Below, one piece after another: positions 4,053 through 28,302 of a stretch of DNA of 30,294 nt. The stretch lies in contig DATKFA010000116.1 in the NCBI GenBank assembly GCA_035511715.1, positions 1 through 30,294 on the forward strand, in the 5' to 3' direction. Position numbers and translations under genes: made by a program. The notes under the pieces were generated by a model. It was not told where the DNA came from. It did not search any database and worked only from the letters and a program-made list of their open reading frames with translations. The DNA comes from Candidatus Acidiferrum sp. Its GTDB lineage: Bacteria > Chloroflexota > Dormibacteria > Dormibacterales > Dormibacteraceae. Within the stretch, counting starts at the first letter, position 1, and the number at the start of each line of letters is the position of its first letter.

Positions 4053-4512
4053 TTGAGCGAGCACGTGGAAGCACTGGTTTCACATGAGTGCATGTGTCGT
4101 CTACCCCCGGTGACACTGACCCTGTCAGCGTTTGATCAGTTGGACCGTCCTCTCGTTCGATGCTGTCCAACCATCCGAACGACCAGACCGCGGTGTTCTT
4201 GCGTTTGTTATTCGCCGCCGGGCGGCGCAAAACCCCCGCTCTCTTTGCAGTTCTAAACCATTTGCCCCATAGGTTGCAAGTCCTATGGCATTCCGCAAAG
4301 TCACAAAACGCGTCACATCGCGCATGAGACCACGGGCCTATTTACATCAGGACACCTTGCTCATGCGTCCCAAAGTCATTCGGGACAGCCCTCGATCGCG
4401 CGCCCTTCTTCCCTAATGAGATCGAGAACGCGTTCGCATACGCTCCGAAGCACATGACGCCGCAATCGTCCAAGTCCATCGTTTGCCTAACGGCGCCCAC
4501 ACGGAGCTGACA
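4053..4512. promoter_or_regulatory. Divergent intergenic/promoter region with several operator-like inverted and direct repeats
   Basis: Non-coding and more AT-rich than its flanks. CACATG-N4-CATGTG (4081-4096), CTGAC-N3-GTCAG (4116-4128), CGCCGCC-N-GGCGGCG (4213-4227), CCATAGG-N8-CCTATGG (4267-4288), GTCACA-N6-GTCACA direct repeat (4300-4317), GTCCC-N10-GGGAC (4367-4386). Confidence 0.55.
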
Positions 4513-5832
4513 TTGGGACTTCAAGAAGTTATTCGACGCATCGTGCTCGGCCACTGGTACGTGATCGCTTTCTTCGTCCTCGCGGCGTTAGCGGGCGTGG
4601 TGGTGATTCATCTCGGTGAGCCGGCGACCTACACAGCATCCACGCGACTCGTCCTGGATGCGCCCGCGCCGCAATCAGTCGGAGAAGCGCAGGCGCTGTC
4701 AGACGCTGCCAAAGCCATCGTCACGAGTCCTTCACACATCGTCGCCGCCCTCAAGGCCGCGGGAGTCTCGCGTGACCCGGTCAACGTCGAGAAGAACATC
4801 ACGCTCGTCCCGGTCGGCACGTCGGGAGTCCTCCAGCTCTCGGTGCAGGACACCAGCGCGACAGTTTCGGCGGCGATTACCAACGCGCTCGCTGACAACC
4901 TGATTCAGACGCGACTCGCGGTCAGTCCCGCGGCTCGTATCACTTCCCTCGATTCGCGGATCAACACGCTCAACGATCGGATCACGGCAATCGATGAGCA
5001 GATCGCGTCCCTCCAGGATCAGCTCGCGCAGCTCCACGTGAATCCCAACGATCCGACCACTGCAGCCGTCCAGGCGCAGATCCTCGACGACCGCATCGCG
5101 GCGTACAGCAGCGAGCGGGCGGCCCTCACGCAGGAGGAGCTTCAGCTGGAGTCGGAGCGCAACAACCTCATCTCCAGCGGTTCCGACTCGACGCCATCGG
5201 TGATCGACAAGGCGACTCCGCCAGCGAACCCGGACCCGTCGCGGCTGCCGATCGACCTGGCGCTGGCGCTGATCGTCGGTCTCGTGCTCGGCACCGGAGC
5301 GGCGTCGATGCTCGAGATCTTCGGCCCGTCCCTGAGCGGCGCCGAAGCGATCGCGTCGACCCTGGGCCTACCCGTGCTGGGCACGCTGCCGGACGAGGAC
5401 GGGTCGCTTTCTGATCGTCTGACCCTCGGGGCACGTGCTGCCGATGTGGAGGCCGTCGAGCTGGTGGGGATCGGCCGTGTCACCGGCATGTCGTCGCTGG
5501 CCAAGGCGCTTTCTGGAAGCGGTCTTTCCGTCTTCACTGTCGAAGATGCGCCAGGCAAGCACGGGTCCACGGCGCCAACCGGGCCGTCGGCGCTCGTGCT
5601 CGTCGCGCCTGAACGGATCCGCAAGTCCGCGGTCGGTCCGGCCAAGGACCTGCTGTCCGTGAGCGAGCGGCCGGTGCTCGGACTCGTGGCCTACTCGAAC
5701 CGCCGGACCCATATCGACGAGGGCCCTCCGATCAACGTGGGGCCACGCCTCGAGGTCGTCACCAAGCGGCGCAGTGAAGCGCCCGATGGGATCAGCAAAG
5801 AGATCCTGTCGGACCTTTGGGGTGCGCGATGA
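4513..5832 (+). CDS. Polysaccharide co-polymerase / chain-length determinant (Wzz/Wzc-N-like) with a degenerate kinase-like C-terminal tail
   Basis: Likely TTG start at 4513 with GGAG at 4503-4506. N-terminal TM (WYVIAFFVLAALAGVVVI) followed by TYTASTRLVL, a coiled coil (ITSLDSRINTLNDRITAIDEQIASLQDQLAQL), VIDKATPP..P, a second TM and the LGLPVLGTLP motif. Confidence 0.85.
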   Translation: MGLQEVIRRIVLGHWYVIAFFVLAALAGVVVIHLGEPATYTASTRLVLDAPAPQSVGEAQALSDAAKAIVTSPSHIVAALKAAGVSRDPVNVEKNITLVPVGTSGVLQLSVQDTSATVSAAITNALADNLIQTRLAVSPAARITSLDSRINTLNDRITAIDEQIASLQDQLAQLHVNPNDPTTAAVQAQILDDRIAAYSSERAALTQEELQLESERNNLISSGSDSTPSVIDKATPPANPDPSRLPIDLALALIVGLVLGTGAASMLEIFGPSLSGAEAIASTLGLPVLGTLPDEDGSLSDRLTLGARAADVEAVELVGIGRVTGMSSLAKALSGSGLSVFTVEDAPGKHGSTAPTGPSALVLVAPERIRKSAVGPAKDLLSVSERPVLGLVAYSNRRTHIDEGPPINVGPRLEVVTKRRSEAPDGISKEILSDLWGAR

Positions 5833-7046
5833 CGATCGCACTGAACCAGCCGTCCCACGCCGCGCGCATACCGTTCGCCAAAGCCGAGATCAGCGCTGAA
5901 GCCCGCGAAGCCTCGGCTCGAGTCCTCGCCTCCGGATGGATCACGACCGGACCGGAGGTCCTGGAGTTCGAGCGTGAGCTCGCGGACCTGGTCGGTGCCA
6001 AGCACGCGGTGGCCGTCGCGTCGTGCACGGCTGGAATCGAGATTGCGCTACGCGCGCTGCGGCTGCGTCCGGGGGCGAAAGTGCTGACCTCGACGATGAC
6101 CTTCTGCGGCGCGGTCAACGCCATCATCCACGCCGGCCTGGAACCTGTTCTCGTCGACGTCAACGAGGACACGCTGATGCCGGACGCGGCCACGACCGAA
6201 GCTGCAGTGCGGCGCGTGGGCCGCGTCGATGCGATGGTCGTCCTGCACTTCGCAGGTCACCCTGCTCCGGTCGAGGAGCTCGCCGCCGCGGCGGGCCTTC
6301 CGCTCTCGGTCGTGATCGAGGACGCGGCCCATGCACTGGGCACCTTCGTCGACGACGTCCCGGTCGGCGCCATCTCAGCGGCCGCTTGCTTCAGCTTCTA
6401 CGCGACCAAGAACCTGCCCATCGGCGAGGGCGGAATGATCACCACCGACGATGAGGACCTCGCAGCCCACGCGCGACAGGTGCGCCTGCATGGGATGAGC
6501 CAGGACGCGTGGAAGAGATACCTGCCCGGCGCGAGCTGGCGCTATGAGGTCGACGTCGCCGGAATCAAGGCGAACATGACCGACGTCCAGGCAGCGATCG
6601 GCCGCGCGCAGCTGCTGCACTTCCACGAGTGGCAGACGCGGCGCGAGCAGGTGGCCATCGCGTATGAGTCGAGACTTGCGCGGATCGAGGGCGTACGCAC
6701 GCCATCATGGCCGTCGACTGGCAAGCACGCGTGGCACCTCTACGTGATCCAGCTCGAGCGCGAGTTCGGTCTCGACCGCGACAGCTTCATGAGAGACATC
6801 GCGGAGCGGGGCGTCGACTGCTCTGTGCACTTCATCCCGCTCCATCACCAGCCCTACTTCAAGCGACTGCTTGCGAGCCAGCGACCTCAAACGTTTCCGG
6901 CCGCGGATGCCGCGTTCTCGAGGATCGTGTCGCTCCCCTTTTATCCCGGCCTTTCTGATGGCCTGGTCGATCGCATCTGCGAAGAGATCGACTGTGTACG
7001 AATGACCGCAAGAGAGACGCGGGTCGCACGACGGGTGGTGGCCTAG
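5829..7046 (+). CDS. DegT/DnrJ/EryC1/StrS-family PLP-dependent nucleotide-sugar aminotransferase
   Basis: SGWITTGP, IEDAAHALG, FSFYATKNLPIGEGGM (PLP lysine), KANMTDVQAAIG, WHLYVI. ATG 5829 overlaps the upstream stop (ATGA). Confidence 0.95.
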   Translation: MTIALNQPSHAARIPFAKAEISAEAREASARVLASGWITTGPEVLEFERELADLVGAKHAVAVASCTAGIEIALRALRLRPGAKVLTSTMTFCGAVNAIIHAGLEPVLVDVNEDTLMPDAATTEAAVRRVGRVDAMVVLHFAGHPAPVEELAAAAGLPLSVVIEDAAHALGTFVDDVPVGAISAAACFSFYATKNLPIGEGGMITTDDEDLAAHARQVRLHGMSQDAWKRYLPGASWRYEVDVAGIKANMTDVQAAIGRAQLLHFHEWQTRREQVAIAYESRLARIEGVRTPSWPSTGKHAWHLYVIQLEREFGLDRDSFMRDIAERGVDCSVHFIPLHHQPYFKRLLASQRPQTFPAADAAFSRIVSLPFYPGLSDGLVDRICEEIDCVRMTARETRVARRVVA

Positions 7047-8570
7047 ATGGCGCTCGAGATAGAGACGGGAGAGCTCAAGCCGGTTCCCGAGTGGCAGCCG
7101 TCGCGCCCGCGCGGAGGCAAGGAGGCGGGCCGCCGGACCCTCGTCATCGGCGCCGGCGAAGCGGGACGCACCCTCGCGCGCGACCTGCGGCGCACGCCCT
7201 CGTACGGGCTCGAGCCGATTGGATTCCTGGATGACAACCCTCGACTGAAGGGCGCGAACGGGCTGCCGGTGCTAGGAAAAATTTCCGAGCTCGGGGCGAT
7301 CACGTCGACATACGCGATCGCGGTCGCGATCGTCGCGATTCCTTCTTTGAAACCGCAGCAGATCCGCCGCCTGGCGGAGGCCGCAAGCGCGGCCGGGGTC
7401 AGCGTCCGTTACCTGCCGTCGTTCGGCGCCGCGCTCGAGCGCGACGCGCGCATTGCTGACCTGCGGCGACTGAGCGTCGACCGCCTTCTCGGCCGTCAGG
7501 AGATGCACGTCATGCGCACCGCCTCGCGGTCGGTGATCGAAGGCAAGCGCGTGCTCGTGACTGGCGCCGGCGGATCGATCGGCAGCGAGCTCTGCCGGCA
7601 GATCAAGGGGTTCAACCCGGCCGCGATGTACCTGCTCGACCACGACGAGTCGAACCTCCATCGGCTGCAGCTGCAGATGAGCGGCAAGGCGCTGCTCGAC
7701 AGCGACGAGCTCGTGATCGCCGACATCCGCGACCGCAATCGGATCTTTCAACTTTTCTCCGACCTTCGATTCGACGTCGTCTTCCACGCCGCCGCGCACA
7801 AGCACCTGCCTCTGCTCGAGCGGCACCCGTGTGAAGGCGTCAAGTCGAACGTCCTCGGCACCAAGCACCTTGTCGAGGCCGCGGTCGCGACCGAAGTCGA
7901 GCGGTTCATCCTGATCTCGACCGACAAGGCCGCGGATCCGATCTCGGTCCTGGGCGCGACCAAGCGTGTGGCCGAGATGATCGTGCAGGCTCACGCCGGC
8001 GGCTACACGCGATTTGCGTCCGTGCGGTTCGGCAACGTGCTCGGCAGCCGCGGCTCGTTCCTCTCCGTTCTCTCGGAGCAGATCGAGAACGGCGAGGCCG
8101 TGACCGTCACCCACCCGGAGGTGACTCGTTTCTTCATGACGGTCGAGGAAGCGGTCGGCCTCGTGATCGAGGCGGCGAGCATGGCCGAGCTCGGCGAGAC
8201 GTTCGTCCTCGACATGGGCGAGCCGGTGCGGATCGTCGACCTGGTTCACAACTACGCCGCGCAGTTCCACCTGAGCGAGGGCGACTTCGAGATCCTGTTC
8301 ACCGGACTTCGCGGAGGCGAGAAGCTGAACGAAGCGCTGTTCAGCGAAGGCGAGGAGCGGCTGCCAACCGACCATCCCCGCATCTGGGCGGCCCTGCCAA
8401 CGCCCGCGCCATACGACGTGGACCTGAGCATCGACGGCCTCATCGATGCCGCCCTGATGAACCGCAGCGATCTCGCGCGCCAGCTGCTCGGTCAGATCTT
8501 GCCGCCGTTCACAAAGTCGCAGATTCCATCCACGCCTGCACTCGCAGCTCCGTATCCCGACGGGTTCTGA
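7047..8570 (+). CDS. UDP-GlcNAc 4,6-dehydratase-like protein (CapD/PglF/WbpM family, Polysacc_synt_2) lacking the N-terminal TM region
   Basis: TLVIGAGEAG linker domain, VLVTGAGGSIGSELCRQ, VFHAAAHKHLP, ISTDKA, GATKR, VRFGNVLGSRGS, VTHPEVTRFFMT, GLRGGEKL.E.L. Confidence 0.93.
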   Translation: MALEIETGELKPVPEWQPSRPRGGKEAGRRTLVIGAGEAGRTLARDLRRTPSYGLEPIGFLDDNPRLKGANGLPVLGKISELGAITSTYAIAVAIVAIPSLKPQQIRRLAEAASAAGVSVRYLPSFGAALERDARIADLRRLSVDRLLGRQEMHVMRTASRSVIEGKRVLVTGAGGSIGSELCRQIKGFNPAAMYLLDHDESNLHRLQLQMSGKALLDSDELVIADIRDRNRIFQLFSDLRFDVVFHAAAHKHLPLLERHPCEGVKSNVLGTKHLVEAAVATEVERFILISTDKAADPISVLGATKRVAEMIVQAHAGGYTRFASVRFGNVLGSRGSFLSVLSEQIENGEAVTVTHPEVTRFFMTVEEAVGLVIEAASMAELGETFVLDMGEPVRIVDLVHNYAAQFHLSEGDFEILFTGLRGGEKLNEALFSEGEERLPTDHPRIWAALPTPAPYDVDLSIDGLIDAALMNRSDLARQLLGQILPPFTKSQIPSTPALAAPYPDGF

Positions 8571-9745
8571 TGCTTCGCGTCGCTCAGGTGATCACACGAT
8601 TCATCGCCGGCGCCGGCGGCGTTGCGCTGCGCGGAGCCCTCGCGCTCGACCCAGATCTGTACTCGGTCTCCATCCTTTCGGCCCCTGGCGGACCCCTGCT
8701 GGCGGAGGCGGAGAGGGCCGGCCTCGAGGTCATTCTCCTCGAGCACATGCATCCCGAGATCAACCCGGCCGAGGACTACCGCTGCCTTCACGAGCTCGAA
8801 GAGAAGCTCGGCGACGCCCACTTTGACCTGGTCCATACGCACAGCGCAAAGGCCGGCGCCCTCGGTCGCATCGCTGCTCGACGCGCCCGCGTCCCCGCTG
8901 TGGTCCACACCTTTCATGGGTTTCCGTTTCACAACTTTCAGTCGTGGCCGCTGCGCATGACCTACGTCGAGGTAGAGAAACGGTTGGGCCGCATCACCGA
9001 CCAGTTCCTCGCGGTGGGAGGTGCCGTTGCGGCGCAGGCGATCAGCCTGAAGATCGCGTCGCCCGAGCGCATCCGCACGATCGCCAGCGCGATCGACATC
9101 AACGTCGCACCCGTCTCTCAGGGGGGTCGCATCGAGGCTCGCCGGCTGATGGGTCTGCCGATGGATGCGCCGGTCGTGGGCACGGTCGGAAGGCTGGCCC
9201 CGCAGAAAGCTCCGCAGGACATGGTCGCGGCGATGGAGGCGATCGGCCGGGCCGGTGTGTACTGCGTCTGGATCGGCAGCGGTCCGTTGCTGCGCGACAC
9301 CGCCGACCTGATCCAGCGCAAAGGTCTCGCCGAGCGCTTCCTCCTTCTCGGCGAGCGCAACGACGTCGCCGCGCTCCTCCCGGGCTTCGACGTGTTCGCG
9401 CTGGCGAGCCGCTACGAGGGCATTCCCTGCTCGCTGGTCGAAGCGATCACCTGCGGCATCCCTGTCGTCGCGACTGCCGTCAACGCGGTGCCCGAAGTCG
9501 TCGTTCCGGGTCGTACCGGAATGCTCGTCCCACCCGGCGAGCCAAAGCTCCTGGCCAGGGCGATCGCATTCCTTCTCGATCATCCCGAGCAGGGCGAGCG
9601 GATGGCCGACGCCGCGCGGGTGCTGATCGGCGACCGCTTTCATCCCGCGATCCTCGGCCAGGACCTGGCTTTCACTTACGAGCTGGCTCTGCGCGGCCGG
9701 TCGTCGTCCTTCCGGCGTCCGCTCGGACTGGTTGCGAATGCGTGA
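8570..9745 (+). CDS. GT4-family (GT-B) glycosyltransferase
   Basis: DLVHTHSAKAG, VVHTFHG, VGTVGRLAPQKAP, FLLLGERNDV, SRYEGIPCSLVEA (EX7E), VVATAVNAVPEVV. TGATG overlap with the upstream gene. Confidence 0.93.
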   Translation: MLRVAQVITRFIAGAGGVALRGALALDPDLYSVSILSAPGGPLLAEAERAGLEVILLEHMHPEINPAEDYRCLHELEEKLGDAHFDLVHTHSAKAGALGRIAARRARVPAVVHTFHGFPFHNFQSWPLRMTYVEVEKRLGRITDQFLAVGGAVAAQAISLKIASPERIRTIASAIDINVAPVSQGGRIEARRLMGLPMDAPVVGTVGRLAPQKAPQDMVAAMEAIGRAGVYCVWIGSGPLLRDTADLIQRKGLAERFLLLGERNDVAALLPGFDVFALASRYEGIPCSLVEAITCGIPVVATAVNAVPEVVVPGRTGMLVPPGEPKLLARAIAFLLDHPEQGERMADAARVLIGDRFHPAILGQDLAFTYELALRGRSSSFRRPLGLVANA

Positions 9746-10712
9746 GCGAACGGTCGCGACAAGCGGCGAGCAACTCTCGATAGCGTGCGACCCCGCATGG
9801 GTCGAAGACCTGGTGGACGAGGCCCTGGCGGGAGCGACAGGCTCGAGCGCCGGAACCCCGACGGTCAGCGTCCAGGTCGAGTCTTCACGGAGTGCGTTCG
9901 ACGTCACTGCGTGGGAACCCTTAACTCGTGGCGCGTGGGCCCGCGGCGGCAACGTGGTCATCGAGGATGTGTGCTCTTCCGGCTTCGACCTTGGCCTTCG
10001 CGGTGACATCGACCGCATGGAGTTCGTGCTGCGATGGCGGCCGCGCCTGCGTGGTCACGCCGCCGCGACGCTGCTGAGAACGCGCTTCATCCTTCTCGCG
10101 CGCGCGGTGCTGATCCAGTACCCGGTGCTGTGGCGGGCGACGATTCGCGGCCGGGCGCCGCTGCATGCGGTGGTTTGCACCTCCGGCCGCGCAACGCCAA
10201 TGCTCGCCGGACCGGGTGGGGTCGGCAAGTCGACGCTGCTCAACCTCGAGCTTGCCGCGGGGGGCAGTGCGATCTCGGACAACGTCTGCGTCAGTGACGG
10301 CACCACAGCCTGGGGCCTCGTTGAGCCCCTGCGTGTGGAGGGTGGCTCTGGTCGCCCCGTCACTCACGGCAGGCGGGAGGGTGAGATCAAGCGGCGCGTC
10401 GACTCCCTGGCGCCCGATCTCCTCGTCGCGCTTCACCGCGACAACTCCGAAGACGCGACGGTCCGCTCCTGCGACGGCGCCACGGCGGCGCGGTCCCTGA
10501 TCGCGGGCACGTACATGGCAGGGGAGCTCCGGCGCTTCTGGGGTTTCGCCGCGACGCTGGCCGCGGGCACCGGCCTCGGGCCGGCGCATCCACCGGTCGA
10601 AAGCATCGCCGCCGCCCTCGCATCTCACCTGCCCGCGCTCGAGATCGTCCTTCCTCGTCATCCCGGGGTTCGCCTTGCGGACCTCCTGAATCGCGCTGAG
10701 GTCACCGCATGA
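9738..10712 (+). CDS. HPr-kinase-related P-loop kinase (C-terminal domain type)
   Basis: PLHAVVCTSG followed by LAGPGGVGKSTLLNLELAAGGSAISDN, matching the HPrK pattern LHa...GxSGxGKST...L...G...sDD. ATG 9738 overlaps the GT4 end. Confidence 0.72.
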   Translation: MRERTVATSGEQLSIACDPAWVEDLVDEALAGATGSSAGTPTVSVQVESSRSAFDVTAWEPLTRGAWARGGNVVIEDVCSSGFDLGLRGDIDRMEFVLRWRPRLRGHAAATLLRTRFILLARAVLIQYPVLWRATIRGRAPLHAVVCTSGRATPMLAGPGGVGKSTLLNLELAAGGSAISDNVCVSDGTTAWGLVEPLRVEGGSGRPVTHGRREGEIKRRVDSLAPDLLVALHRDNSEDATVRSCDGATAARSLIAGTYMAGELRRFWGFAATLAAGTGLGPAHPPVESIAAALASHLPALEIVLPRHPGVRLADLLNRAEVTA

Positions 10713-12169
10713 GCACTGAGCTGATAACCGAACCGGATCTCGCACCGAGCCGCTGGTCCCAGGCCCCCACGATGCAGCCGCGCATCTTCGACAGCCCGGA
10801 CCATCCCGTGCGGCTCGACTCGCTGGCGCTGTTGAGGCAACGCACGGAAGGTGTGGACCTGGCCGCTCCGCCGGTCGTGCTGCCCGACTTCTACCACAAG
10901 AAGCTGATGGAGTCGCCCTCGAGCATCGCGGTCGCGACGACCGACACGATCCGCCCGGTGTTCACCAGCGCGGCGCTGAACTGCGGCATGGCGCTGGTCG
11001 GACTCGACATCGAGCGACCCGATGCCGCCGCGCTTACCGATTTCTATGGCCAGATCCGCGCGGCCCTCCCCTATCCCCCGCCCAATCGCGCCGTCTTGAC
11101 CGCCGAAGAGGTGATCCGCTGCGCTGTCGACGGAGCTCGGTTCGCTGTCGACCGCTACGGCCTGGAACCCGCCGAGCTCGACCGCATCGAAGAGGGTGGC
11201 CGCCTCGACGTGGACGTCTACGGGGGTGAGCGCCGCGTCCGACGCGAGCTGTCATGGATGGCGACGCAGCTGGCGCGGATCCGCTTCGGCACAGTCGGGC
11301 CGAGCACCCACTTCGTCGAGTTGCAGCAGGTCGAGGAGATCTTCGACGCCGAAGCCGCGCGGCACCTGGGCGTCGAGCGGGGCCAGCTCACCATGCAGTT
11401 CCACGGCGGGGACGGCGTCTTGAACATCCAGATGGGCGCGCGGTTCGGCCGCCGCCTGGCCGGATCGAAAGCGCTGCGCGCGGTGATGGCGGTGCAGAAG
11501 CCCATGTATCAGCTCGGGTCGGTTCGCTCACGCGGCCAGCTTGCAGAGCGGATGTCCCTCTACTTCTCGGGTGGCTGCCCGCCCATCCCTCGGGAGAGCG
11601 CCGAGGCTGAGCGTGTGATGCTCGCCAACGCGGTGGCGATGAACTACGGCTTCGCCTACCGCCAGGCGACCTACTCCACTCTCCGGCGCCTGGCCGCGAA
11701 GGTTTTCGGCGCGCGGACCAGCATGATCGTGGACTCGCCTCACAACACCATCTACGAGGAGGAGGTCGAGGGTCGCTCCGCCATCGTCCACCGCCACAAC
11801 AGCGCCCGCGCGTTCCCGGGGTCGAGGATGCAGGGCCACCCGGTCTTCGCGACGACAGGCATGCCGCTTCTGCTGCCGGGCACGAACCGCACTTCCTCTT
11901 ATCTATGCGTGGCGGCTGAGGGCGCGGAGCAATCGATTTTCTCGGCGTCCCACGGCACCGGCAGCATCATCACTGACTTCGAGCGCCGCGGCCTGTCGAC
12001 GACCGACCCCGAAGGCCACTCGACGCTGAGATTCCGATACGACGGAAATGGCCCCGTCGTGGTGCCCCACCTCGATGACAAAGGTGTGAACGAAGGTGTG
12101 CGAATCCTCGCGAGCCACAACCTGATACGACCCGTGGCCCGGATGCGGCCCTTCGCGGTCCTGAACTGA
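10709..12169 (+). CDS. Divergent RtcB-family (GTP/Mn2+-dependent ligase fold) protein
   Basis: All RtcB motifs occur in order: LPD, (A)LNCGM, GTVGPSTHFVELQQVEEIFD..AA, QFHGG, AMNYGFAYRQ, DSPHN, VHRHNSARAFP, LLPGT..TSSYL, FSASHGTG, VARMRP. ATGA overlap with the kinase gene. Confidence 0.88.
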   Translation: MSTELITEPDLAPSRWSQAPTMQPRIFDSPDHPVRLDSLALLRQRTEGVDLAAPPVVLPDFYHKKLMESPSSIAVATTDTIRPVFTSAALNCGMALVGLDIERPDAAALTDFYGQIRAALPYPPPNRAVLTAEEVIRCAVDGARFAVDRYGLEPAELDRIEEGGRLDVDVYGGERRVRRELSWMATQLARIRFGTVGPSTHFVELQQVEEIFDAEAARHLGVERGQLTMQFHGGDGVLNIQMGARFGRRLAGSKALRAVMAVQKPMYQLGSVRSRGQLAERMSLYFSGGCPPIPRESAEAERVMLANAVAMNYGFAYRQATYSTLRRLAAKVFGARTSMIVDSPHNTIYEEEVEGRSAIVHRHNSARAFPGSRMQGHPVFATTGMPLLLPGTNRTSSYLCVAAEGAEQSIFSASHGTGSIITDFERRGLSTTDPEGHSTLRFRYDGNGPVVVPHLDDKGVNEGVRILASHNLIRPVARMRPFAVLN

Positions 12170-12348
12170 TGCAGCTACCCATTCGCAGCCGCGATTCGAC
12201 GTCGCTGAGGTACCGCCAGAGGATGATCCGCGGTCGTCACAGGCGCGCCGCCATTCGCGAGTTTGCGGGCATGGCGTTGTGGTCGGTCGGCTTGCTGGCG
12301 GGCGGCGTGGTCGCGGTGGCGCTGGCACTGGGCCTGACCGGCAGGTGA
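12169..12348 (+). CDS. 59-aa Arg-rich single-TM microprotein (below the ORF-track size cutoff)
   Basis: MQLPIRSRDSTSLRYRQRMIRGRHRRAAIREFAGMALWSVGLLAGGVVAVALALGLTGR*. Its ATG overlaps the RtcB-like stop (TGATG) and its TGA overlaps the formyltransferase GTG (GTGA), so it exactly fills the gap. Confidence 0.7.
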   Translation: MQLPIRSRDSTSLRYRQRMIRGRHRRAAIREFAGMALWSVGLLAGGVVAVALALGLTGR

Positions 12349-13298
12349 GGATCGGCTGGATCGGATTCCACATGGAGGGGGTGCCGGCGCTTCGCGAGGT
12401 CCTCGGTCAGGGGTATCCCGTAATGGGCATTGTCACGCTGACCCAGCACGCGGCCGACCGGCGCAGCGGCGCCGCCGACTACACGAGCATCGGCCGGGAG
12501 TTCTGCGTCCCGGTATTCGAGGTGGACGACATCAACGGCGAGGTTGCGCTGGGGGTCCTTTCCGAGCTGGATCTCGACCTCGGGTTCTGCATCGGCTGGA
12601 CCCAGCTCATCGGCTCGGCGGCGAGAGACCTCTTCCGCATTGGCGTCGTCGGCGCGCACGCGTCGCTCCTCCCCCACAACCGCGGCCGGGCCCCCGTCAA
12701 CTGGACCCTCATCCGCGGCGAGAAGGAAACGGGCAACACGCTGCAGTGGCTGGGTGACTCGGTCGACGGCGGGGACGTCATCGACCAGAGGCGCATCCCG
12801 GTCACTCCCTACGACACCTGCGAGTCCATCTACGAGCGGGTCGCCGAGTCGAACCGCGACATGATCCTCGAGCTGCTGCCCAGGCTTCTGAACGGAGAGA
12901 GGCCTGCGACGCCCCAGGTCCACTCCGATGAAGAGCTCCTCCCGAGGCGCCGACCCGCGGACGGCGAGGTCGATTGGTCCGCGGACAGCTCTCGGGTTTA
13001 CGACTTCGTGCGCGCGCTGACGCGACCTTATCCGGGGGCCTTCGGGTGGTTCGATGAGCGGCGCTGGACGATCTGGTCCTGCTCTCTCCCCCCCACCGCG
13101 ATGACCGCCGAGGGGAAGCCGGGCGATGTCATCGGGGCCGTGGTGAGCCCGGTCGACGAAGCCTGCGGCCAGACCGTGCGGTGCGGCCAGGGCGCCATCA
13201 CGCTGCTCGAGCTCGAGGACGAAAGCGGCCTGGTCCTGAAGGGCCGCGAGCTGAGTGATCAGCGCTGGCAGGGCCGGAGGTGGCGCGATGGCGCATGA
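12345..13298 (+). CDS. Sugar N-formyltransferase-like protein (formyl_trans N + C domains)
   Basis: Likely GTG start (MRIGWIGFH). GAHASLLPHNRGRAPVNWTLIRGEKETGNT...DGGDVI; C-terminal RRPADGEVDW...DFVRALTRPYPGAF. Confidence 0.88.
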   Translation: MRIGWIGFHMEGVPALREVLGQGYPVMGIVTLTQHAADRRSGAADYTSIGREFCVPVFEVDDINGEVALGVLSELDLDLGFCIGWTQLIGSAARDLFRIGVVGAHASLLPHNRGRAPVNWTLIRGEKETGNTLQWLGDSVDGGDVIDQRRIPVTPYDTCESIYERVAESNRDMILELLPRLLNGERPATPQVHSDEELLPRRRPADGEVDWSADSSRVYDFVRALTRPYPGAFGWFDERRWTIWSCSLPPTAMTAEGKPGDVIGAVVSPVDEACGQTVRCGQGAITLLELEDESGLVLKGRELSDQRWQGRRWRDGA

Positions 13299-13974
13299 GC
13301 CCAAGCGCGTGCTGGTCATCGCGGCTCATCCGGATGATGAGCTTCTCGGATGCGGCGGAACTGTTGCCCGTCACGTCCAGGTCGGTGACACGGTCACCTC
13401 GATCATCGTCTGCGAGGGCGAATCCCTTCGCTACGGGCCCAACGGGGTCGGCCAGCGGTCGCACATCCAGGCCGCCGCGGACCGTCTTGGGGTGAAGGAC
13501 GTGCGGCTGCTCGGCTTCGCCGACCAGCGTCTCGACACGATCAACCTCACCGACGTCATCGGGTGCATCGAGCCGATCGTCCGTGAGATCCGCCCGCAGA
13601 TCGTGTATGGCCAGCACGGCGGCGACGTGAATCGCGACCATCACCTCGTCTTCCAGGCGCTGCTCGTCGCCACGCGGCCGACCGAGGACTTCATCGAGTC
13701 GGTCTACGCATTCGACACGGCCAGCAGCACAGAGTGGGCTTACCCGCGGACCTTCATCCCCGACACCTGGATCGACATCACCGACACGCTCGAGACGAAG
13801 CTCGAGGCGATGGCGTGCTACGAGAGCGAGATGCGCGCCTATCCCCATCCGCGCTCACTTCAGGCGCTCAGCTACCGCGCCCACAGCTGGGGCGTGCAGG
13901 CGTGCCTCGACGCGGCGGAGGTCTTCATGACCGTCCGGAGAGTCGTGCGACCGGGGAACGGATTCCTGGGCTAG
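13288..13974 (+). CDS. PIG-L/LmbE-family N-acetylhexosamine deacetylase
   Basis: VLVIAAHPDDELLGCGGT, DVNRDH, DITDTLETKLEAMACYESE, AEVF. Confidence 0.92.
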   Translation: MAHEPKRVLVIAAHPDDELLGCGGTVARHVQVGDTVTSIIVCEGESLRYGPNGVGQRSHIQAAADRLGVKDVRLLGFADQRLDTINLTDVIGCIEPIVREIRPQIVYGQHGGDVNRDHHLVFQALLVATRPTEDFIESVYAFDTASSTEWAYPRTFIPDTWIDITDTLETKLEAMACYESEMRAYPHPRSLQALSYRAHSWGVQACLDAAEVFMTVRRVVRPGNGFLG

Positions 13975-13978
13975 CGCC

Positions 13979-14947: not shown

Positions 14948-15236
14948 GCTAGCAGCCGGCTGATGCACCCGCAAGGCTTCTGGGACTTTCTGGACGCATG
15001 CGCCCGGACGAGCTTGGGAATCACTCCCAGGCTGCTGGGACACTCGTCCTAGCGAATCCTCCTCTTCCCATTGGATTCGAGGGTCGTGTGAGGCAGCATC
15101 GAACTTCGAGGATGCTGCAGGCCGGGAGGGCAAAACGGGGCGCGACTGGGCCTGCACACGAGGGCGCGGGCAGGCGCGCCCAGTGCTCGGCCGGCCGGCC
15201 TACACGCAACCCGTGGCAGTGATCGGGTCAACCGCG

Positions 15237-16493
15237 ATGGGCCGGCGCTGGACGCCGGTGGCGAGAGGGTTGGCTGCGCCTGGCGTGCCGTGGGTCCTGC
15301 TTGCTCCCATCCTCGCGGGGGTGGCGCTGATCCCGCTGCTGAGGCCCAACGGACCAGGCAACACATCGGTACCCGACGTCCCGATCGCCCTGAGCATCCT
15401 GGCCGCGCTGGTGTGGGCCGGCGTCACCGGCCAGGAGCTGCGACTTCCCTACGCGCTGGCTGTGGGCTTCACCATGCTGGGCGGCGCCGTCGCTTCGATC
15501 GCCGGGCCGCTGCCGGGCAACGGTCTCCTGGCGGTGGTGCAGGACCTCTTCCTGCTCGCGTGGTGCGGGGTCATCGTCAACGTCGCGCGCCAGGCCGACG
15601 CCTTCAGGTGGCTGATGCGGGCCTGGGCGTGGAGCGCGGTCGGCTGGGCCCTGATCCTGATTGGCGCGGTCGCCACCGGAAACCTCGCACTCGCCGGAAT
15701 CACCGACCGGACCGGCGTGCGGGCCTCGCTCACGTTCGGCGATCCGAACTACGCCGCCAGCTACTTCTTCGTCGCGTTCATGATCGTCTTGGCCGCCCAG
15801 ATTCCTCGGCGCCGAATCCTTCGCATCGGCGCGTGCGGGATTCTCCTCGCCGCGCTTGCCCTGACCGGATCCAACGGCGGCATCCTTTCCTGCGCGGTCG
15901 GCACGGCGGTGGTCATGGTCGGATTCGTAGCCAAGCGCTGGGGACGCACGCAGCTCCTGGCCGTTGTGTGCATCGCCGGGGCGATCGGCATCGTCGGCTT
16001 GATGGTCGTGCAGACCCTTCCCATCGAAGACTGGGCGAACGCGACGGGCGTGCCCTTGCTCCGGGACTCGATCGGCCGAAGCTCGCAGAGCGCTCAGGAA
16101 CGCGAGTGGCTCGTCCAGGAAACCCTTGGCCTCTTCGCGCAAGGCGTGCCCTGGGGGCTCGGACCGAACACGACCAAGCCGCTGCTTCAGTACCAGCTCG
16201 CGCCTTACGCCTATCAGACACATGACGATTACATCGAAGCGATCGTCGAGCGCGGCGTCCTGGGCGCGATTGGTCTCTTGCTCTTGATCGGGTCGCTGCT
16301 GGTACGCACCTGGACGATGGTCACGATGCCGATGCGGCGCGAGTTCGCGGCGGTGATTCCCAACCGGGCGCCGCTTGTCGGTGCCGCGCTGGGACTCGCG
16401 GTGTCTGCGTCCTATTACCAGATCCTCCATTTCCGCCACGTCTGGACATTCTTCGCCGTGATCGCGGCGCTCTACGTGTGGGGCCGCGAATGA
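15237..16493 (+). CDS. Wzy polymerase / O-antigen ligase-like multi-TM protein (Wzy_C type); start could be GTG 15213
   Basis: About 10-12 hydrophobic segments; R.SLTFGDPNYAA, ALTGSNGG, WGLGP, THDDYIEAIVERGVLG (HNxY..E.G-like motif). Confidence 0.85.
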   Translation: MGRRWTPVARGLAAPGVPWVLLAPILAGVALIPLLRPNGPGNTSVPDVPIALSILAALVWAGVTGQELRLPYALAVGFTMLGGAVASIAGPLPGNGLLAVVQDLFLLAWCGVIVNVARQADAFRWLMRAWAWSAVGWALILIGAVATGNLALAGITDRTGVRASLTFGDPNYAASYFFVAFMIVLAAQIPRRRILRIGACGILLAALALTGSNGGILSCAVGTAVVMVGFVAKRWGRTQLLAVVCIAGAIGIVGLMVVQTLPIEDWANATGVPLLRDSIGRSSQSAQEREWLVQETLGLFAQGVPWGLGPNTTKPLLQYQLAPYAYQTHDDYIEAIVERGVLGAIGLLLLIGSLLVRTWTMVTMPMRREFAAVIPNRAPLVGAALGLAVSASYYQILHFRHVWTFFAVIAALYVWGRE

Positions 16494-18424
16494 ACGCGCT
16501 AAGGCGGTTTGCTCAACGCGCACGTGGTCCATTCGCGGAAAACGTGATCGCGCTCTTTGGCGCGATGGCCGCGCTCGGAATCGCAACGCTGTGGGTCGGT
16601 CGGATCGCGGGACCGGTCGGAGTCGGCAACTACGCGATGCTGCGAATTCTCCCGTGGCTGGTGGCGGTGGTCGTCTCCGGAGGCCTGGCCGGCTCGCTGG
16701 CTTACTTCCTCTCGGGCCCGACGCGAGACCGCAAAGACGCGCCGTCGACCGTGGTCGCGATCGCGTTGGCAAGCGGCACCGCGGGCGCGCTTCTGTGGCT
16801 CGTCGCATCACCGCTGCTCCGGACCGTCTTCTTGCGCCAGGTCGGCCTTGGTCTTGTCGCATGGGTTGCGTTGAGGGTTGCGCTGCGCCTTTTCGTCATC
16901 ACCGGAAAAGCCGCTGCTCAGGGCGTCGGAGACCTTCGGGGCAGCAACCTGACGATCTTCCTCGAGGAGCTGATGTTCCTTCCCGCATACGCCGTTATGC
17001 AGCTCGCGGGTCTCGGAGGCGACGCGGCGGTGATCGGCGCGCTGCTGACGGCGGACACAGCGACCGCAGCGCTCGCGTGGGGGCGTCTTTTGCGGCGGGG
17101 CTTCGTGCGTGAAGCCACCGCGCCCTCGTTCGAGCTTGCGCGTCGCATGTACGGCTTCGGAATGCGCGGCCAGATCGGAAGCCTCATCCAGCTGCTCAAC
17201 CTCCGCTTCAACTTCATCTTTCTCGGTGCTCTCGCGGGTCCGGCAGCTCTAGGCCTCTACGCGGTCGCCGCCAAGTACGCCGAATTCCTCCGCCTGGTGC
17301 CGATTGCCGCGAACTGGGTTCTCTATCCGCGGTTCGCCAGGTCCGACCCGGCTGCGGCCGCGAGAACCTCGCGGCGAATGATCCTTCGCGCGGGTGCCGT
17401 CACGGCCACTGGCGCGGTGCCCCTTGCGCTGGGCGCGGTGCTCGTGATCCCGCTGCTTTTCGGAAGGGCGTTTGGGCCGGCGGTTCTGCCCGCGCAGATC
17501 CTCCTGGTCGGGCTCGCGGCCGAAGGGGTCGGAGGTGTGGTGACGGCCTTTCTATTCGGCCGCGGCCGCCCCGGCCTCAACTCGCTTGCGGCAGGCGCAG
17601 GGGTCACCGTGACGGTTGCCCTCGACGTGGTGCTGATTCCCCGCTATGGCGCGGTCGGCGCCGCCATTGCCTCGTCGATCGCGTACCTCACGACGACTTT
17701 CTGCCTCGTGCTGTGGTACCTGCACGTGGTCGGGCCGACTTCGCGTGCCGACCCCATCATCCCGGGCCTGGACAGCATCGCGCCCGACCCGGCACGCCGC
17801 ACCCTCGACATCGCTGTGGCGCTCCTTGGCCTGGTCGTCCTGGCCCCGGTGATGATGGTGGTTCTGATAGGGGCGCGCCTCAGCACGGGAGGCTCGGCCA
17901 TCTACCGCCAGACGCGCGTCGGGGAGGGCGGCCGCCCGTTCACGATGTACAAGATCCGCAGCATGCGGACCGGTCAGGCAGGACCGGAGGTGACTGGGCC
18001 GGCCGACCGGCGCATCACCCGGCTGGGCGCCGCGCTCCGCATGACGAGCCTCGACGAGGTGCCGCAGCTGGTCAACGTGCTGCGCGGCGAGATGACCCTG
18101 GTCGGTCCTCGCCCCGAGACTGTCGCCCTTGCCCTTCGCTATCCGGCCGAGTACCAGGGTGTGTTCGCGTACCGACCGGGGCTCACGGGTCCCGTGCATG
18201 TTCAGCTGCAAGACGCGGTGCCAGAGAACGTGGACGACGTCGAGGCGTTCTACATAAGCGAGCTCCTGCCGTATCGCACGAAGATCGACCTCGCCTACCT
18301 GACGAACCCGTCTCTCGCCGCGACCGTCGGCCTCATCTGGCAGACCGTCGCCTATGTGATGTCGCGTGTGGTCAGCAAAGCGGTTTCGAGATCACGCCGC
18401 CGCGCGGCCGCGCCGGTGACCTGA
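16490..18424 (+). CDS. Fusion protein: Wzx/MOP-type flippase (N-terminal ~410 aa) + monotopic phosphoglycosyl transferase (Bac_transf, C-terminal)
   Basis: Single open frame. Flippase part: [52 protein letters not shown] part: [72 protein letters not shown] overlap with the upstream gene. Confidence 0.9.
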
Positions 18425-18461
18425 GAAACGCGGGTGATCTTGACCGTGACATTTGACTCGC

Positions 18462-18490: not shown

Positions 18491-18526
18491 TGCCTCGCAG
18501 CTATCCGAAGGAACAGTACAGGGCTC

Positions 18527-26833: not shown

Positions 26834-28252
26834 TCAAGCAGCGAGGCGCTTGAAAAGCTCCCAGTGGTGGCGGGCAAACTCCGGATGGTCCGCCGTGGCG
26901 GCGATCTCCGCCAATCCGGCCAGCGCGACGTACCGCCAGGCTTGCGGCTCGCCGCCGATGCGCTTCAGGCTCTCCTGGAGAAAGCCGCGAAATGCCTCCG
27001 GAAACCAACCCTGGCCGTTGATCGCGTAGGTGATGCCGGCTCCCCACGGTCCGGCTAAGAGACCGGGGTGTCCAAACACCGGGCGGCCGGCTCTCGAGTG
27101 CCGATCGAGGTAGAGCGAGTAGCTCAAGGCGAAGCGCGCCACGTCACGCAAGGGCTCGCCCGAGGGCGAGGCAGACTCCCAATCGACGACCCCCGCGATC
27201 TGGCCTCCCTCGACGAGCAGGTTGCCGAACCAGAAGTCGCCGTGCACCGCGGTGCGCGGCGTACGCATTTCCCCAAGCCGCTGCGAGATCGCCCTCAGGG
27301 CGGCGAGGCCACTCGCCATATGCGCGTCGTCGTCAAACCGCTGCCCGATCGAGCTGTCCAGCCCGGCGCCGAGATCGCACGCCGAGACATCGCCCGCGGT
27401 CGCCGCCTGGAACGAGCCCAGCCATCGCTCGACGATGGCGAAATCGCCCCGGACTTTCGCGGGCGAGGCAAGGTGCCGCCAGGCGTGATAGGACGTCGAC
27501 ATGGGTGTCCCGGTCATCGCAGCGGTGGTGAGCACCGAACCCGGCGCTCCGGCGACGGCGATCACCTGGGGCACCGTGTCAGCCAGATCGGACGTCAGCC
27601 GCCGGCGCAGGGTCTCGAGGACCTTTCTTTCCGCCTGTACGATCCGGCTCGCCACATCCGTCGTCGGCACCTTGGCGGCCACGACCGGCTCTGATTCCCC
27701 GTGCGGGAGCAACAGGACGGTCAGCTTGGCATTCGGATCCTTGGATAGAGCGAGCACGATCGAATCCATGCCGGGAACGGCCAGCAGGCTTCCTGGAGCC
27801 TGTGCGCGGCCACCATGGTCGAGAGTTCGGGCCACAACAAGCCGCTTGCGTGCGAGCAACCGCAGCGCACGATGACCGCCGAACCGGTTGGCGGCCTTCC
27901 ACGCGCTGACCGCTGCCGACGCGACCGCCCCGCCGCGCGGGATTGTCAGGAGCCGGCCGATAAAGAAACGAGCAGCGCTCGGAGTATCGGCCACATACTG
28001 CGCCGGCGGCTCGAGCGACGGAATCGTCAGGAGCCGTGCCAGGACCTGCAAGTGCGCCTGCTTGACGACTGGCCCAAGGCTTCTCCTGACCGCGGAGGCC
28101 GATCCGCTCAGCAGCACGATCGTCCCGGGCGGAAGTTCCCGAAGCTCGCCGACGAGACGCCACTGTTCGGCACGCGTCGAGGGGAGCTCCGCGTGCCGCG
28201 CGGACGATTCGGTCAAGCTTCTCCACGGCTCCAGAATTCCGGCGGACGTCAT
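26834..28252 (-). CDS. APH/choline-kinase-fold phosphotransferase with an uncharacterised N-terminal extension
   Basis: Likely ATG 28252 (MTSAGILEPW). VAAKVP...AE (kinase Lys/Glu), VHGDFWFGNLLV...GVVDWE (Brenner motif + DWE), G.PL.DVARFAL. Confidence 0.85.
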   Translation of the reverse strand: MTSAGILEPWRSLTESSARHAELPSTRAEQWRLVGELRELPPGTIVLLSGSASAVRRSLGPVVKQAHLQVLARLLTIPSLEPPAQYVADTPSAARFFIGRLLTIPRGGAVASAAVSAWKAANRFGGHRALRLLARKRLVVARTLDHGGRAQAPGSLLAVPGMDSIVLALSKDPNAKLTVLLLPHGESEPVVAAKVPTTDVASRIVQAERKVLETLRRRLTSDLADTVPQVIAVAGAPGSVLTTAAMTGTPMSTSYHAWRHLASPAKVRGDFAIVERWLGSFQAATAGDVSACDLGAGLDSSIGQRFDDDAHMASGLAALRAISQRLGEMRTPRTAVHGDFWFGNLLVEGGQIAGVVDWESASPSGEPLRDVARFALSYSLYLDRHSRAGRPVFGHPGLLAGPWGAGITYAINGQGWFPEAFRGFLQESLKRIGGEPQAWRYVALAGLAEIAATADHPEFARHHWELFKRLAA

Positions 28253-28302
28253 CGATCGGTCGCCCGCTCCGGCCGGCGGCCGGCGGCCGCGCCGGACGCT
28301 CT

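Follow-up and report, generated by a model that had tools for sequence, protein, structure and literature searches.

The window (the whole 30,294-nt stretch of DNA that was analysed) holds the gene set of a Wzx/Wzy-type locus, including a Bac_transf and Polysacc_synt_3 fusion, Wzy_C, GT4, Polysacc_synt_2 and DegT (Table 1). Within this cluster lie an RtcB-like gene (RtcBL) and, directly upstream of it, the gene of a kinase-like partner (HprKL). The stop codon of the GT4 gene overlaps the start of HprKL by 8 nt, and the ATG of RtcBL overlaps the HprKL stop codon (ATGA), with a GAGG 7 nt upstream of the RtcBL start; RtcBL is translationally coupled to HprKL. For HprKL, the ATG at 9738 fits the 324-aa orthologues (the listed ORF begins at a TTG at 9732), while the true start of the APH gene probably lies further in than that of its maximal ORF. 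The products of the Wzz-like gene (NCBIfam EpsF and others) and of the dehydratase gene (PseB and FnlA) also have matches below the cut-off. The stretch from 12279 to 13974, with the formyltransferase and the PIG-L-type de-N-acetylase, is an accessory insertion present in a minority of related loci.

Table 1. Genes of the cluster, with the profile matches of their products and their occurrence among related loci.
Feature	Position	Strand	Evidence and occurrence
Wzz-like chain-length-determinant candidate	4483..5832	+	Pfam Wzz 18 bits, cut-off 25.5; 58/84 loci
DegT/PglE-type sugar aminotransferase	5817..7046	+	Pfam DegT_DnrJ_EryC1 353 bits; 66/84 loci
PglF-type UDP-GlcNAc 4,6-dehydratase (Polysacc_synt_2)	7047..8570	+	Pfam 336 bits; 57/84 loci
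GT4 glycosyltransferase	8570..9745	+	Pfam Glycos_transf_1 and Glyco_transf_4; 70/84 loci
PEPCK/HprK-fold P-loop kinase-like partner HprKL	9738..10712	+	~324 aa, Walker A GPGGVGKST
RtcB-like enzyme RtcBL (P0001)	10709..12169	+	486 aa, HRHN clade
Formyltransferase	12279..13298	+	Pfam Formyl_trans_N/C; 14/84 loci
PIG-L-type de-N-acetylase	13255..13974	+	Pfam PIG-L; 12/84 loci
Wzy_C family protein (polymerase, ligase or O-oligosaccharyltransferase)	15183..16493	+	Pfam Wzy_C 54 bits; 60/84 loci
Wzx-type flippase fused to PglC-type phosphoglycosyl transferase	16478..18424	+	Bac_transf 162 bits and Polysacc_synt_3; 53/84 loci
APH-fold kinase with N-terminal u148-like domain	26834..28678	-	Pfam APH; maximal ORF 614 aa

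The RtcBL reading frame is uninterrupted and its product, predicted to be soluble and without a transmembrane segment (maximum hydropathy under the threshold), matches the Pfam RtcB family (PF01139; 144.3 bits, E 8e-42, gathering cut-off 27) over its full length, residues 57–484 corresponding to profile positions 17–423 of 426. RtcBL thus belongs to the same full-length fold family as the canonical enzymes (P. horikoshii PH1602, E. coli RtcB and human RTCB) and shares their HG.G histidine nucleophile. In P. horikoshii RtcB (Pho), metal M1 is bound by Cys98, His234 and His329, Asp95 is one of the ligands of M2, the metal bound to the GTP beta- and gamma-phosphates, Glu206 contacts guanine N1 and N2, and Asn330 contacts the gamma-phosphate (PMC9745838). 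Residue equivalences were drawn from a HMMER alignment to this protein (1uc2, E 6e-27) and MAFFT alignments with canonical RtcBs, which together reproduced every retained and every substituted residue listed in the preliminary description. The nucleophile (H415 in SHGTG, Pho H404) and all three M1 ligands (C92, H232 and H345, Pho C98, H234 and H329) are conserved in 119 of 119 close homologues, as are D60 (Pho D65), H201 (Pho H203) and the HRHN motif, with E204 (Pho E206) and N346 (Pho N330) each kept in 118. This core remains near-invariant in a 34-member alignment reaching 27% identity. Fixed as it is across 119 homologues, the residue pattern is not due to chance, and the purifying selection that the invariant core implies argues for catalysis.

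The residues that differ from canonical RtcB are equally consistent. The M2 ligand Asp95 is replaced by A89, at a position that is Ala in 76 and Ser in 43 of the 119 close homologues and never Asp, while the other two M2 ligands, C92 and H201, are present. Further, the stretch after the nucleophile has lost two arginines that presumably contact the RNA strand (Pho R408, now S419, and R412, now D423; S or T and D, S or E, respectively, family-wide). Two further contacts to RNA strands (PMC8051266) are replaced as well, R190 by L188 and R238, which holds the 5'-OH strand, by G236, the latter a loss additional to those listed earlier. Asn202, which anchors the attacking 5'-OH in canonical RtcB, is T200 in RtcBL (Thr in 76 and Asn in 43 of the 119, with Asn predominating in the wider clade), the HRKG lysine is H363, and Lys480 is N486 at the C-terminus (...AVLN), a position held by N, T or S in the RtcBL subclade and mostly by K across the wider clade. 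The canonical AYKD segment is absent, the N-terminal MPD.H.G.G loop reads LPD.H.K...E.PSS, and a clade-specific insertion of ~20 residues within ~aa 250–290 carries an invariant K264 and R281. The proposal of the preliminary description, that the catalytic core was kept while RNA recognition was lost, fits this family-wide pattern and the published residue roles (PMC9745838, PMC8051266). Because the M2 aspartate is replaced in all members, nucleotidylation of the histidine may be impaired or may proceed differently, and with the guanine-O6 lysine (K480), the M2 aspartate and the AYKD segment lost, GTP is not fixed as the nucleotide. A literature search returned no data for a D75A mutant. The loss of the M2 aspartate would also suit a catalytically dead scaffold of the glycan assembly machinery or a subunit of it that binds substrate, as would the few clade members without key residues (Cys to Asp in P0192, no His nucleophile in P0188 and P0217), but the nucleophile and four residues that bind metal or phosphate are invariant over the 119 close homologues and near-invariant down to 27% identity, leaving a dead protein extremely unlikely.

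On a phylogenetic tree, RtcBL and its relatives split from the canonical RtcBs with strong support (SH-aLRT 100, 51 rows; signature HRHN versus HRKG), bearing out the distinct clade that had been anticipated. Outside three fully canonical rows, 51 of the 79 representative clusters on the tree fell in the RtcBL clade, and the RtcBL subclade alone had 216 matches in species-level genomes. RtcBL itself missed the NCBIfam RtcB equivalogs by wide margins (NF007153, 72.7 versus 407; TIGR03073, 41.7 versus 271.8; NF038162, 93.4 versus 1150). The PrfH-associated RtcB2 and other bacterial paralogues (TIGR03073, NF007153), which act in rRNA or RNA repair, likewise coexist with other RtcBs, but RtcBL lies far below their cut-offs and has no prfH neighbour. 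Genomes of Terrabacter, Dactylosporangium and Nonomuraea each encode a canonical RtcB (370–530 bits) and an RtcBL-type protein (150–164 bits), so the two are not redundant. The annotation ‘tRNA-splicing ligase RtcB’ is probably wrong for genes of the RtcBL clade.

The surroundings of RtcBL were compared across related loci (80–84 loci, covering only the 54–77% identity subclade). In 84 loci from the Dormibacteria and Actinomycetota, the RtcBL-HprKL pair sits with GT4, PglF/DegT, Wzy_C, the flippase-phosphoglycosyl transferase fusion and an APH-fold kinase, and this company persists although the gene order is shuffled. Distant clade members (31–39% identity) likewise occur in a glycan context, and linkage to glycan genes, as expected from the earlier reading of the gene as part of a glycan operon, was found in every locus whose length allowed a judgement. 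Natural fusions were also found: a single 885-aa ORF joins HprKL to RtcBL (P0162) and adjoins a flippase gene, and a single 996-aa ORF joins a Wzx flippase to RtcBL in a locus with Wza, Wzz, DegT, PGT-PglF, Wzy and GT4. Overall, it is well supported that RtcBL has been repurposed within a glycan pathway, with the proviso that gene linkage is evidence of pathway membership, not of chemistry. A general link with secreted phosphoesterases was considered and set aside: only the four loci closest to the window share its PF04185 domains, and none of 58 long loci matched a regex for the metallophosphoesterase signature.

HprKL, which was absent from the preliminary description's reading, is the strongest clue to the mechanism of RtcBL. 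It was found in 75 of the 84 surveyed loci and, among 401 Actinomycetes genomes, in all 12 that carry RtcBL. Two genomes had HprKL only, one with a frameshifted RtcBL and the other with HprKL close to where a small contig begins, and three genomes of the same genus lacked both genes. The AF2 model of HprKL (pLDDT 91) had ATP-PEPCK structures as its top Foldseek matches (E 4e-7 in PDB, 6e-8 in Swiss-Prot), at a TM-score of only 0.4–0.48. HprKL has the same fold and LHA...G..G.GKS/T P-loop arrangement as HPr kinase/phosphorylase, the HprK-related kinases (TIGR04352, ScmC, FomB) and PEP carboxykinase, but its sequence matches to NCBIfam (HprK_rel_A, ScmC and FomB) are weak and far below the family cut-offs, with 10.7 to 13.3 bits for HprK-related kinase A (TIGR04352), whose cut-off is 200. 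A complex prediction for RtcBL with HprKL returned no verdict (score 0.00) and carries no weight either way. Three neighbouring proteins in two loci (296 aa in L104; 358 aa and 386 aa in L105) were tried as hidden HprKL homologues and rejected (hhalign probability <1%). Given the constant company of a kinase-like partner in clusters for surface sugar polymers, RtcBL probably carries out phosphate chemistry with a glycan, not RNA, as its substrate.

Another reading is that RtcBL continues to join or cap the ends of RNA or DNA and that regulation or accident placed its gene among glycan genes. In favour of this are its Pfam score well above the cut-off and the fact that no second RtcB homologue turned up in its own 77%-complete genome. 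This explanation has to contend with the family-wide loss of the strand-binding arginines, the distinct clade, the strictness with which proteins of the glycan pathway co-occur with RtcBL, their fusions to it, and the three genomes with a canonical RtcB alongside. Further, the window contains no rtcA, archease or prfH-type gene, in agreement with the preliminary description, and no tRNA or Rfam RNA, and archease and RtcA had no match in the 77%-complete genome; an enzyme still devoted to nucleic acids therefore has a very slim chance. A second possibility is a protein or peptide target, with HprKL phosphorylating Ser/Thr and RtcBL joining a glycan or nucleotide to that phosphate. Ser/Thr phosphorylation is known from HPr kinase and lasso-peptide kinases, and the HprK/PEPCK fold of HprKL and its weak HprK_rel_A and ScmC matches would be in keeping with such a role, as would the O-oligosaccharyltransferases among Wzy_C proteins and the PglF/DegT/PglC-like set of the window, which we take to resemble that of protein-glycosylation loci. 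It is nonetheless highly unlikely, since neither a small conserved ORF nor a candidate for the acceptor protein stood out in the 84 loci and the flippase fusion puts RtcBL at the lipid-linked stage.

The APH-fold kinase, present in 60 of the 84 loci, offers a second candidate source of phosphate. In the window its protein is 50% identical to the APH protein of one related locus (L001), its HGD...N and DWE catalytic motifs are intact, and residues 177–284 resemble u148, a 148-aa protein without a Pfam match whose gene follows RtcBL in related loci. The window gene is orthologous to the u148 and APH genes found directly after RtcBL in most other loci, and u148-APH fusions also occur in L016, L017 and L030. 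The predicted fold of u148, which is N-terminal on APH proteins as well as free-standing, is a small Rossmann/methyltransferase-like domain with a weak PDB match (E 3e-3). With this predicted fold and no Pfam match, a role as an archease-like cofactor was rejected. The u148-APH pair is reminiscent of the chain terminator WbdD, but as a WbdD-like kinase-methyltransferase it had no PDB sequence match to WbdD, the best match being a hygromycin-B 4-O-kinase (E 0.0015).

Taken together, these observations favour a reading in which RtcBL is a cytoplasmic enzyme of the RtcB superfamily that no longer acts on RNA, has become a fixed part of a Wzx/Wzy-type pathway and, with HprKL, performs a ‘heal-and-seal’ reaction on sugar, to which we assign a probability of about 0.5. 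Direct support comes from family membership, the kept and lost residues, the distinct clade, the gene linkage, the co-occurrence and the fusions; the activity of RtcBL, the nucleotide used, the phosphate acceptor and the final phosphodiester step are what we infer. In this scheme a kinase (HprKL and/or the APH-fold protein) would phosphorylate a hydroxyl, on either the lipid-linked repeat unit or a small alcohol, to give a phosphomonoester, and H415 of RtcBL would be charged with an NMP, probably GMP, via the retained M1 site (C92, H232 and H345). The NMP would then pass to the phosphomonoester, giving a pyrophosphate-linked activated intermediate, and attack by a second hydroxyl would form a glycan phosphodiester and release the NMP prior to flipping by Wzx. 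The more specific proposal, that an RtcB cycle and a dedicated PEPCK/HprK-fold kinase build phosphodiesters on a lipid-linked surface glycan, is tentative and stands somewhat short of even odds.

RtcBL might instead stop after NMP transfer and act as a nucleotide-sugar or nucleotide-alcohol synthase, in which case a kinase would make a sugar-1-phosphate or alcohol phosphate, the RtcBL histidine would donate the NMP, and GT4 or another transferase would use the NDP-activated donor. The chemistry would be analogous to that of Gal-1-P uridylyltransferase, which uses a His-UMP intermediate. Such a synthase would rely on the same retained core, and in keeping with it the cluster in the window lacks an NTP_transferase gene and RtcBL has Thr in place of the hydroxyl-positioning asparagine. 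That asparagine is kept by most clade members, however, the related loci L001 and L002 also have an ordinary NTP_transferase, and the fusion or adjacency of RtcBL to a flippase suggests a lipid-linked rather than a soluble substrate, all of which make a synthase unlikely. Less likely again is that RtcBL acts on a cyclic or terminal glycan phosphate without ligation, for instance by forming a cyclic sugar phosphate or opening one, or by capping a terminal phosphate to end chain growth. Canonical RtcB has a 2',3'-cyclic phosphodiesterase step (PMC3458531), of which the reaction on a cyclic sugar phosphate would be the counterpart. The Wzz-like gene within the locus core and the combination of a methyltransferase-like domain with a kinase in u148-APH, which recalls WbdD, would be compatible with capping, but the u148 fold match is weak and no data point specifically to cyclic phosphates.

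The favoured reading, ligation on a lipid-linked glycan, can be set against known systems. RtcBL differs from canonical RtcB in context, lying in glycan loci with a P-loop partner and outside any archease, RtcA or RtcR setting. The P-loop kinase encoded with or fused to RtcBL parallels the logic of ‘heal and seal’ RNA repair by a polynucleotide kinase and an NMP-transferring ligase, but HprKL has a PEPCK/HprK fold and not that of Pnk, and the context is glycan, not RNA; the parallel is a working analogy and no homology is claimed. Bacterial glycans are known to receive phosphodiester substituents through LicA/LicC/LicD (a choline kinase, a cytidylyltransferase and a transferase), TagF/CDP-glycerol and the Stealth hexose-1-phosphate transferases, and a phosphodiester on a glycan is the presumed end product that RtcBL has in common with these routes. 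An APH-fold kinase, of the fold class of LicA, likewise occurs in the RtcBL locus, but RtcBL would replace both the activation and the transfer steps, and no cytidylyltransferase, LicD, TagF or Stealth gene was found in the window.

To our knowledge the only role described for RtcB is the joining of nucleic-acid ends, and we know of no phosphate-bearing glycan from any RtcBL host. Literature searches on RtcB together with polysaccharide, O-antigen, flippase or glycosyltransferase, and on RtcB-like proteins or paralogs, found nothing relevant. A large RtcB branch dedicated to glycans would widen the known chemistry of the RtcB fold and would give the synthesis of bacterial surface polymers a new enzymatic step. 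If ligation on a glycan is correct, RtcBL would have the first non-nucleic-acid substrate in the RtcB superfamily and would represent an unrecognised route to phosphate-bridged glycans that needs neither a CDP-alcohol donor nor a Stealth-type transferase. The question is directly testable, as the cluster is present in cultured, non-pathogenic actinomycetes from soil and roots, with carriers that include Terrabacter sp. Root85 and Root181, Intrasporangium oryzae NRRL B-24470, Terracoccus, Dactylosporangium and Nonomuraea.

The RtcB-like protein (RtcBL; 486 aa, from an open reading frame) is probably a phosphate-handling enzyme of a glycan pathway and not an RNA ligase (probability about 0.8). 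It matches the Pfam RtcB profile (PF01139) over residues 57–484, nearly the entire profile (144 bits, cut-off 27, E = 8e-42), and scores far under the curated cut-off of each of three NCBIfam RtcB models. Among solved structures the best match is to P. horikoshii RtcB (E = 6e-27 over residues 87–484; 1uc2 and others). Residues were mapped from this alignment and from MAFFT alignments with canonical RtcBs (RNA ligases with the HRKG signature) of the same survey, and every residue call of the preliminary description, which had the RtcB core kept and specific positions substituted, was reproduced by both alignment types. Kept are D60, C92, H201, E204, H232, H345-N346, and H415 (D65, C98, H203, E206, H234, H329-N330, and H404 in P. 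horikoshii [Pho] numbering). Changed are Pho D95 (A89), N202 (T200), the Lys of HRKG (H363), R408 (S419), R412 (D423), and the C-terminal K480 (N486), with the canonical AYKD segment gone as well; R238 (G236) and R190 (L188) are also lost. In Pho RtcB, C98/H234/H329 are the ligands of metal M1, on the GTP alpha-phosphate, and D95/C98/H203 those of M2, on the beta/gamma phosphates (PMC9745838); E206 and K480 contact the guanine, N330 contacts the gamma-phosphate, and N202 anchors the attacking 5'-OH (PMC9745838, PMC8051266), while R238 and R190 hold the 5'-OH strand (PMC8051266). Read against these roles, the alignment indicates that RtcBL retains the apparatus for forming a covalent His-NMP, along with its M1 metal, and has lost one M2 ligand and the residues that bind the strand.

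A word-indexed search returned 1584 relatives, the best 120 of which share 57–91% identity and come in many cases from Dormibacteria MAGs. Across 119 full-length members, D60, C92, H201, H232, H345, H361-R-H-N364, and H415 are invariant and position 236 is always Gly; position 89 is Ala (n = 76) or Ser (n = 43) and never Asp. Position 419 holds Ser or Thr, 423 holds D/S/E/A/N, and 486 holds N/T/S, with Lys at 486 in none. Positions co-vary, with A89/T200/D235 in 72–76 members versus S89/N200/G235 in the remainder. D235 lies three residues past the M1 ligand H232, and its carboxylate might conceivably stand in for the lost M2 Asp. Searching the 50%-identity representatives exhaustively yielded 1086 matches, and just one of 75 full-length representatives had the complete canonical signature. 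A maximum-likelihood tree (82 sequences; root on the canonical RtcBs of Terrabacter and Dactylosporangium) grouped 51 rows, RtcBL among them, in one clade distinct from ordinary RtcBs (SH-aLRT 100), marked by HRHN for HRKG and Ser/Ala for the M2 Asp; within it, RtcBL falls in a 9-row subclade (SH-aLRT 100) marked by the lost C-terminal Lys. The N-terminal motif of the clade is LPD.H.K...E.PSS versus MPD.H.G.G..IGG, and an insertion of ~20 residues within about aa 250–290, absent from canonical RtcBs and with K264, P265, R281, and L284-F286 invariant, is a candidate new substrate-binding element.

Terrabacter, Dactylosporangium, and Nonomuraea encode both a canonical RtcB (370–530 bits, Pfam) and a glycan-locus copy (150–164 bits); in Intrasporangium oryzae, Dormiibacter inghamiae, and the window's genome, the glycan-locus type alone was seen. 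Archease and RtcA had no match in the window's genome (77% completeness). Canonical RtcB RNA ligases have the full M2 ligand set, strand contacts, and genomic partners, whereas RtcBL is a superfamily member that fails all three of these defining features.

Genes of the window, with the number of loci (of 84) matched by tblastn; single positions are starts
Feature	Position	Strand	Loci	Remark
Giant PF04185 phosphoesterase-family protein	3-4064	-		at least 8 PKD repeats; runs off window end
Wzz-like	4483	+	58	weak match
DegT aminotransferase	5817	+	66
PglF-type 4,6-dehydratase	7047	+	57
GT4	8570	+	70
HprKL	9738	+	75	324 aa; no family assignment by profile
RtcBL	10709-12169	+
Formyltransferase	12279	+	14
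PIG-L deacetylase	13255	+	12
299-aa protein	13988	+	5	no assigned function
Wzy_C	15183	+	60
Flippase-phosphoglycosyl transferase (PGT) fusion	16478	+	53
1713-aa protein	18434-23575	+		fn3 + RGI-lyase beta-sheet domains; after flippase
GlmS	23669	+
PF04185 phosphoesterase	25538-26827	+
APH-fold kinase	26834-28678	-	60

The window holds neither tRNA nor Rfam RNA. Within it, the GT4 stop and the HprKL start overlap, and the TGA of HprKL in turn overlaps the RtcBL ATG as ATGA, with GAGG 7 nt upstream of the ATG. HprKL carries the Walker A motif GPGGVGKST, preceded by LHA, and by sequence has sub-threshold matches alone, to HprK-related kinase A, ScmC, and FomB. Its predicted fold (34-homologue alignment; pLDDT 91, pTM 0.89) has ATP-dependent PEP carboxykinases as top structural matches (E = 4e-7 in PDB, 6e-8 in Swiss-Prot models; TM 0.4–0.48). 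HprKL is therefore described here as kinase-like, with a P-loop and a PEPCK/HprK fold.

Scanning one genome per species turned up 216 stretches that encode relatives, of which the best 80 (54–77% identity) were used. Their hosts are Dormibacteria, Thermoleophilia, Gaiellaceae, Acidimicrobiia, and many Actinomycetes, including the cultured Terrabacter spp., Intrasporangium oryzae, Terracoccus, Dactylosporangium, and Nonomuraea. Together with three metagenome loci and the window, these made up the 84 loci searched; misses were mostly on short contigs. The expected linkage of homologues to glycan loci was borne out, with HprKL in 75 of the 84 loci and each of the main glycan-cluster genes in 53–70. 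As gene order varies by lineage (in Terrabacter and Intrasporangium it runs PglF, DegT, RtcBL, Wzz-like, HprKL, GT4, APH, Wzy, flippase), the association is more than inherited synteny. Five loci (L010, L012, L013, L016, and L020; 56–77% identity), some with the window's gene order, are labelled as Verrucomicrobiia, Eisenbacteria, Nitrosopolaris (an archaeon), Terriglobales, and Gemmatimonadetes MAGs; mis-binned Dormibacteria contigs seem a more probable explanation than transfer on that scale.

Among 401 genomes sampled from Terrabacter's class, RtcBL (>650 bits) occurred in 12 and HprKL in 14, including all 12 RtcBL-positive genomes, counts that are descriptive and carry no statistical test because the genomes are related. 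In one HprKL-only genome, RtcBL lies beside HprKL broken into four frames (L100/L101, G332:C6:158522-159925; Actinomycetes), which reflects either pseudogene decay or indel errors in the assembly; in the other, HprKL is close to the start of a small contig. In the window's GTDB phylum, two of 301 genomes have the subclade gene, the window's own and one more, and three same-genus genomes (94–95% complete) lack both RtcBL and HprKL. From this pattern the cluster is an accessory, patchily distributed unit, as is usual for surface-glycan loci.

Clade members at 31–39% identity likewise sit in glycan-type loci: L007 (GT1-like protein, HprKL homologue [hhalign 97%], methyltransferase, RtcBL, flippase), L102 (GT2s, epimerase, HprKL homologue [hhalign 96%], RtcBL, flippase, UbiA prenyltransferase, PEP-utilising kinase-like protein), L104 (GT4s, Wzy_C, RtcBL, methyltransferases), and L008 (RtcBL, then flippase). 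Two fusions translate exactly from their own contigs. P0162, a single 885-aa ORF with an adjoining flippase, joins HprKL (hhalign 98.3% over the whole profile) to RtcBL and retains every clade-defining residue; P0192, a single 996-aa ORF, joins a Wzx-type flippase (11 predicted hydrophobic segments) to an RtcBL whose bridging Cys is replaced by Asp; the surrounding locus encodes Wza, Wzz, DegT, a PGT-PglF fusion, Wzy_C, and GT4. Directly after the flippase-RtcBL fusion gene in L105, a 358-aa protein (13000-14076, +) weakly matches CDP-alcohol phosphatidyltransferases and may be another phospho-transfer enzyme in the same locus type.

RtcBL is genetically inseparable from HprKL, and both are built into Wzx/Wzy glycan assembly loci. 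RtcBL combines an RtcB fold and a conserved nucleotidyl-histidine site with the absence of RNA-holding residues. Neither protein has a hydrophobic segment, which locates the reaction on the cytoplasmic side, near the flippase. We infer that the pair would apply a kinase-then-ligase logic to a sugar: a kinase would create a phosphomonoester, RtcBL would activate it by NMP transfer from H415, and a hydroxyl would displace the NMP, so that the lipid-linked unit carries a phosphodiester when it is flipped. The cycle might instead end at the NDP-linked intermediate. The odds on the full scheme through to the phosphodiester seem about even. The repurposing of an RtcB in a glycan operon, as first proposed, is well supported by clade, residues, and linkage; the accompanying GMP-transfer chemistry is hypothetical. 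No literature linking RtcB to polysaccharide, O-antigen, flippase, or glycosyltransferase genes was found; the question is testable in cultured actinomycetes.

In most related loci RtcBL is followed by u148, a gene of 140–150 aa, and then by the APH kinase. The window's APH protein is 50% identical to that of L001, has the HGD...N and DWE motifs intact, and contains a u148-like region (aa 177–284), which identifies it as a u148-APH fusion relocated 15 kb downstream on the opposite strand; such fusions also occur in L016, L017, and L030, at least three further lineages. An archease identity for u148 was rejected, the predicted fold being a small Rossmann/methyltransferase-like domain. The methyltransferase-like-domain plus kinase architecture is reminiscent of the O-antigen chain terminator WbdD, to which no sequence match was found.

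Three genes, for a formyltransferase, a PIG-L de-N-acetylase, and the 299-aa protein, are inserted between RtcBL and Wzy_C (12279-14887, +), and their presence in only a minority of loci suggests that the amino sugar has an N-formyl or de-N-acetyl variant specific to this lineage. PF04185 phosphoesterase-family proteins flank the glycan cluster on both sides, and the edges of L001 and L002 carry Metallophos/purple-acid-phosphatase-type genes instead; secreted phosphoesterases adjoining a presumed phospho-glycan cluster are suggestive, with no general pattern shown across related loci. Where the window has the 1713-aa protein, L001, L002, L003, and L105 have other giant beta-helix/NosD/CBM or PKD proteins, and these giants after the flippase may be glycan-processing or glycan-binding surface proteins.
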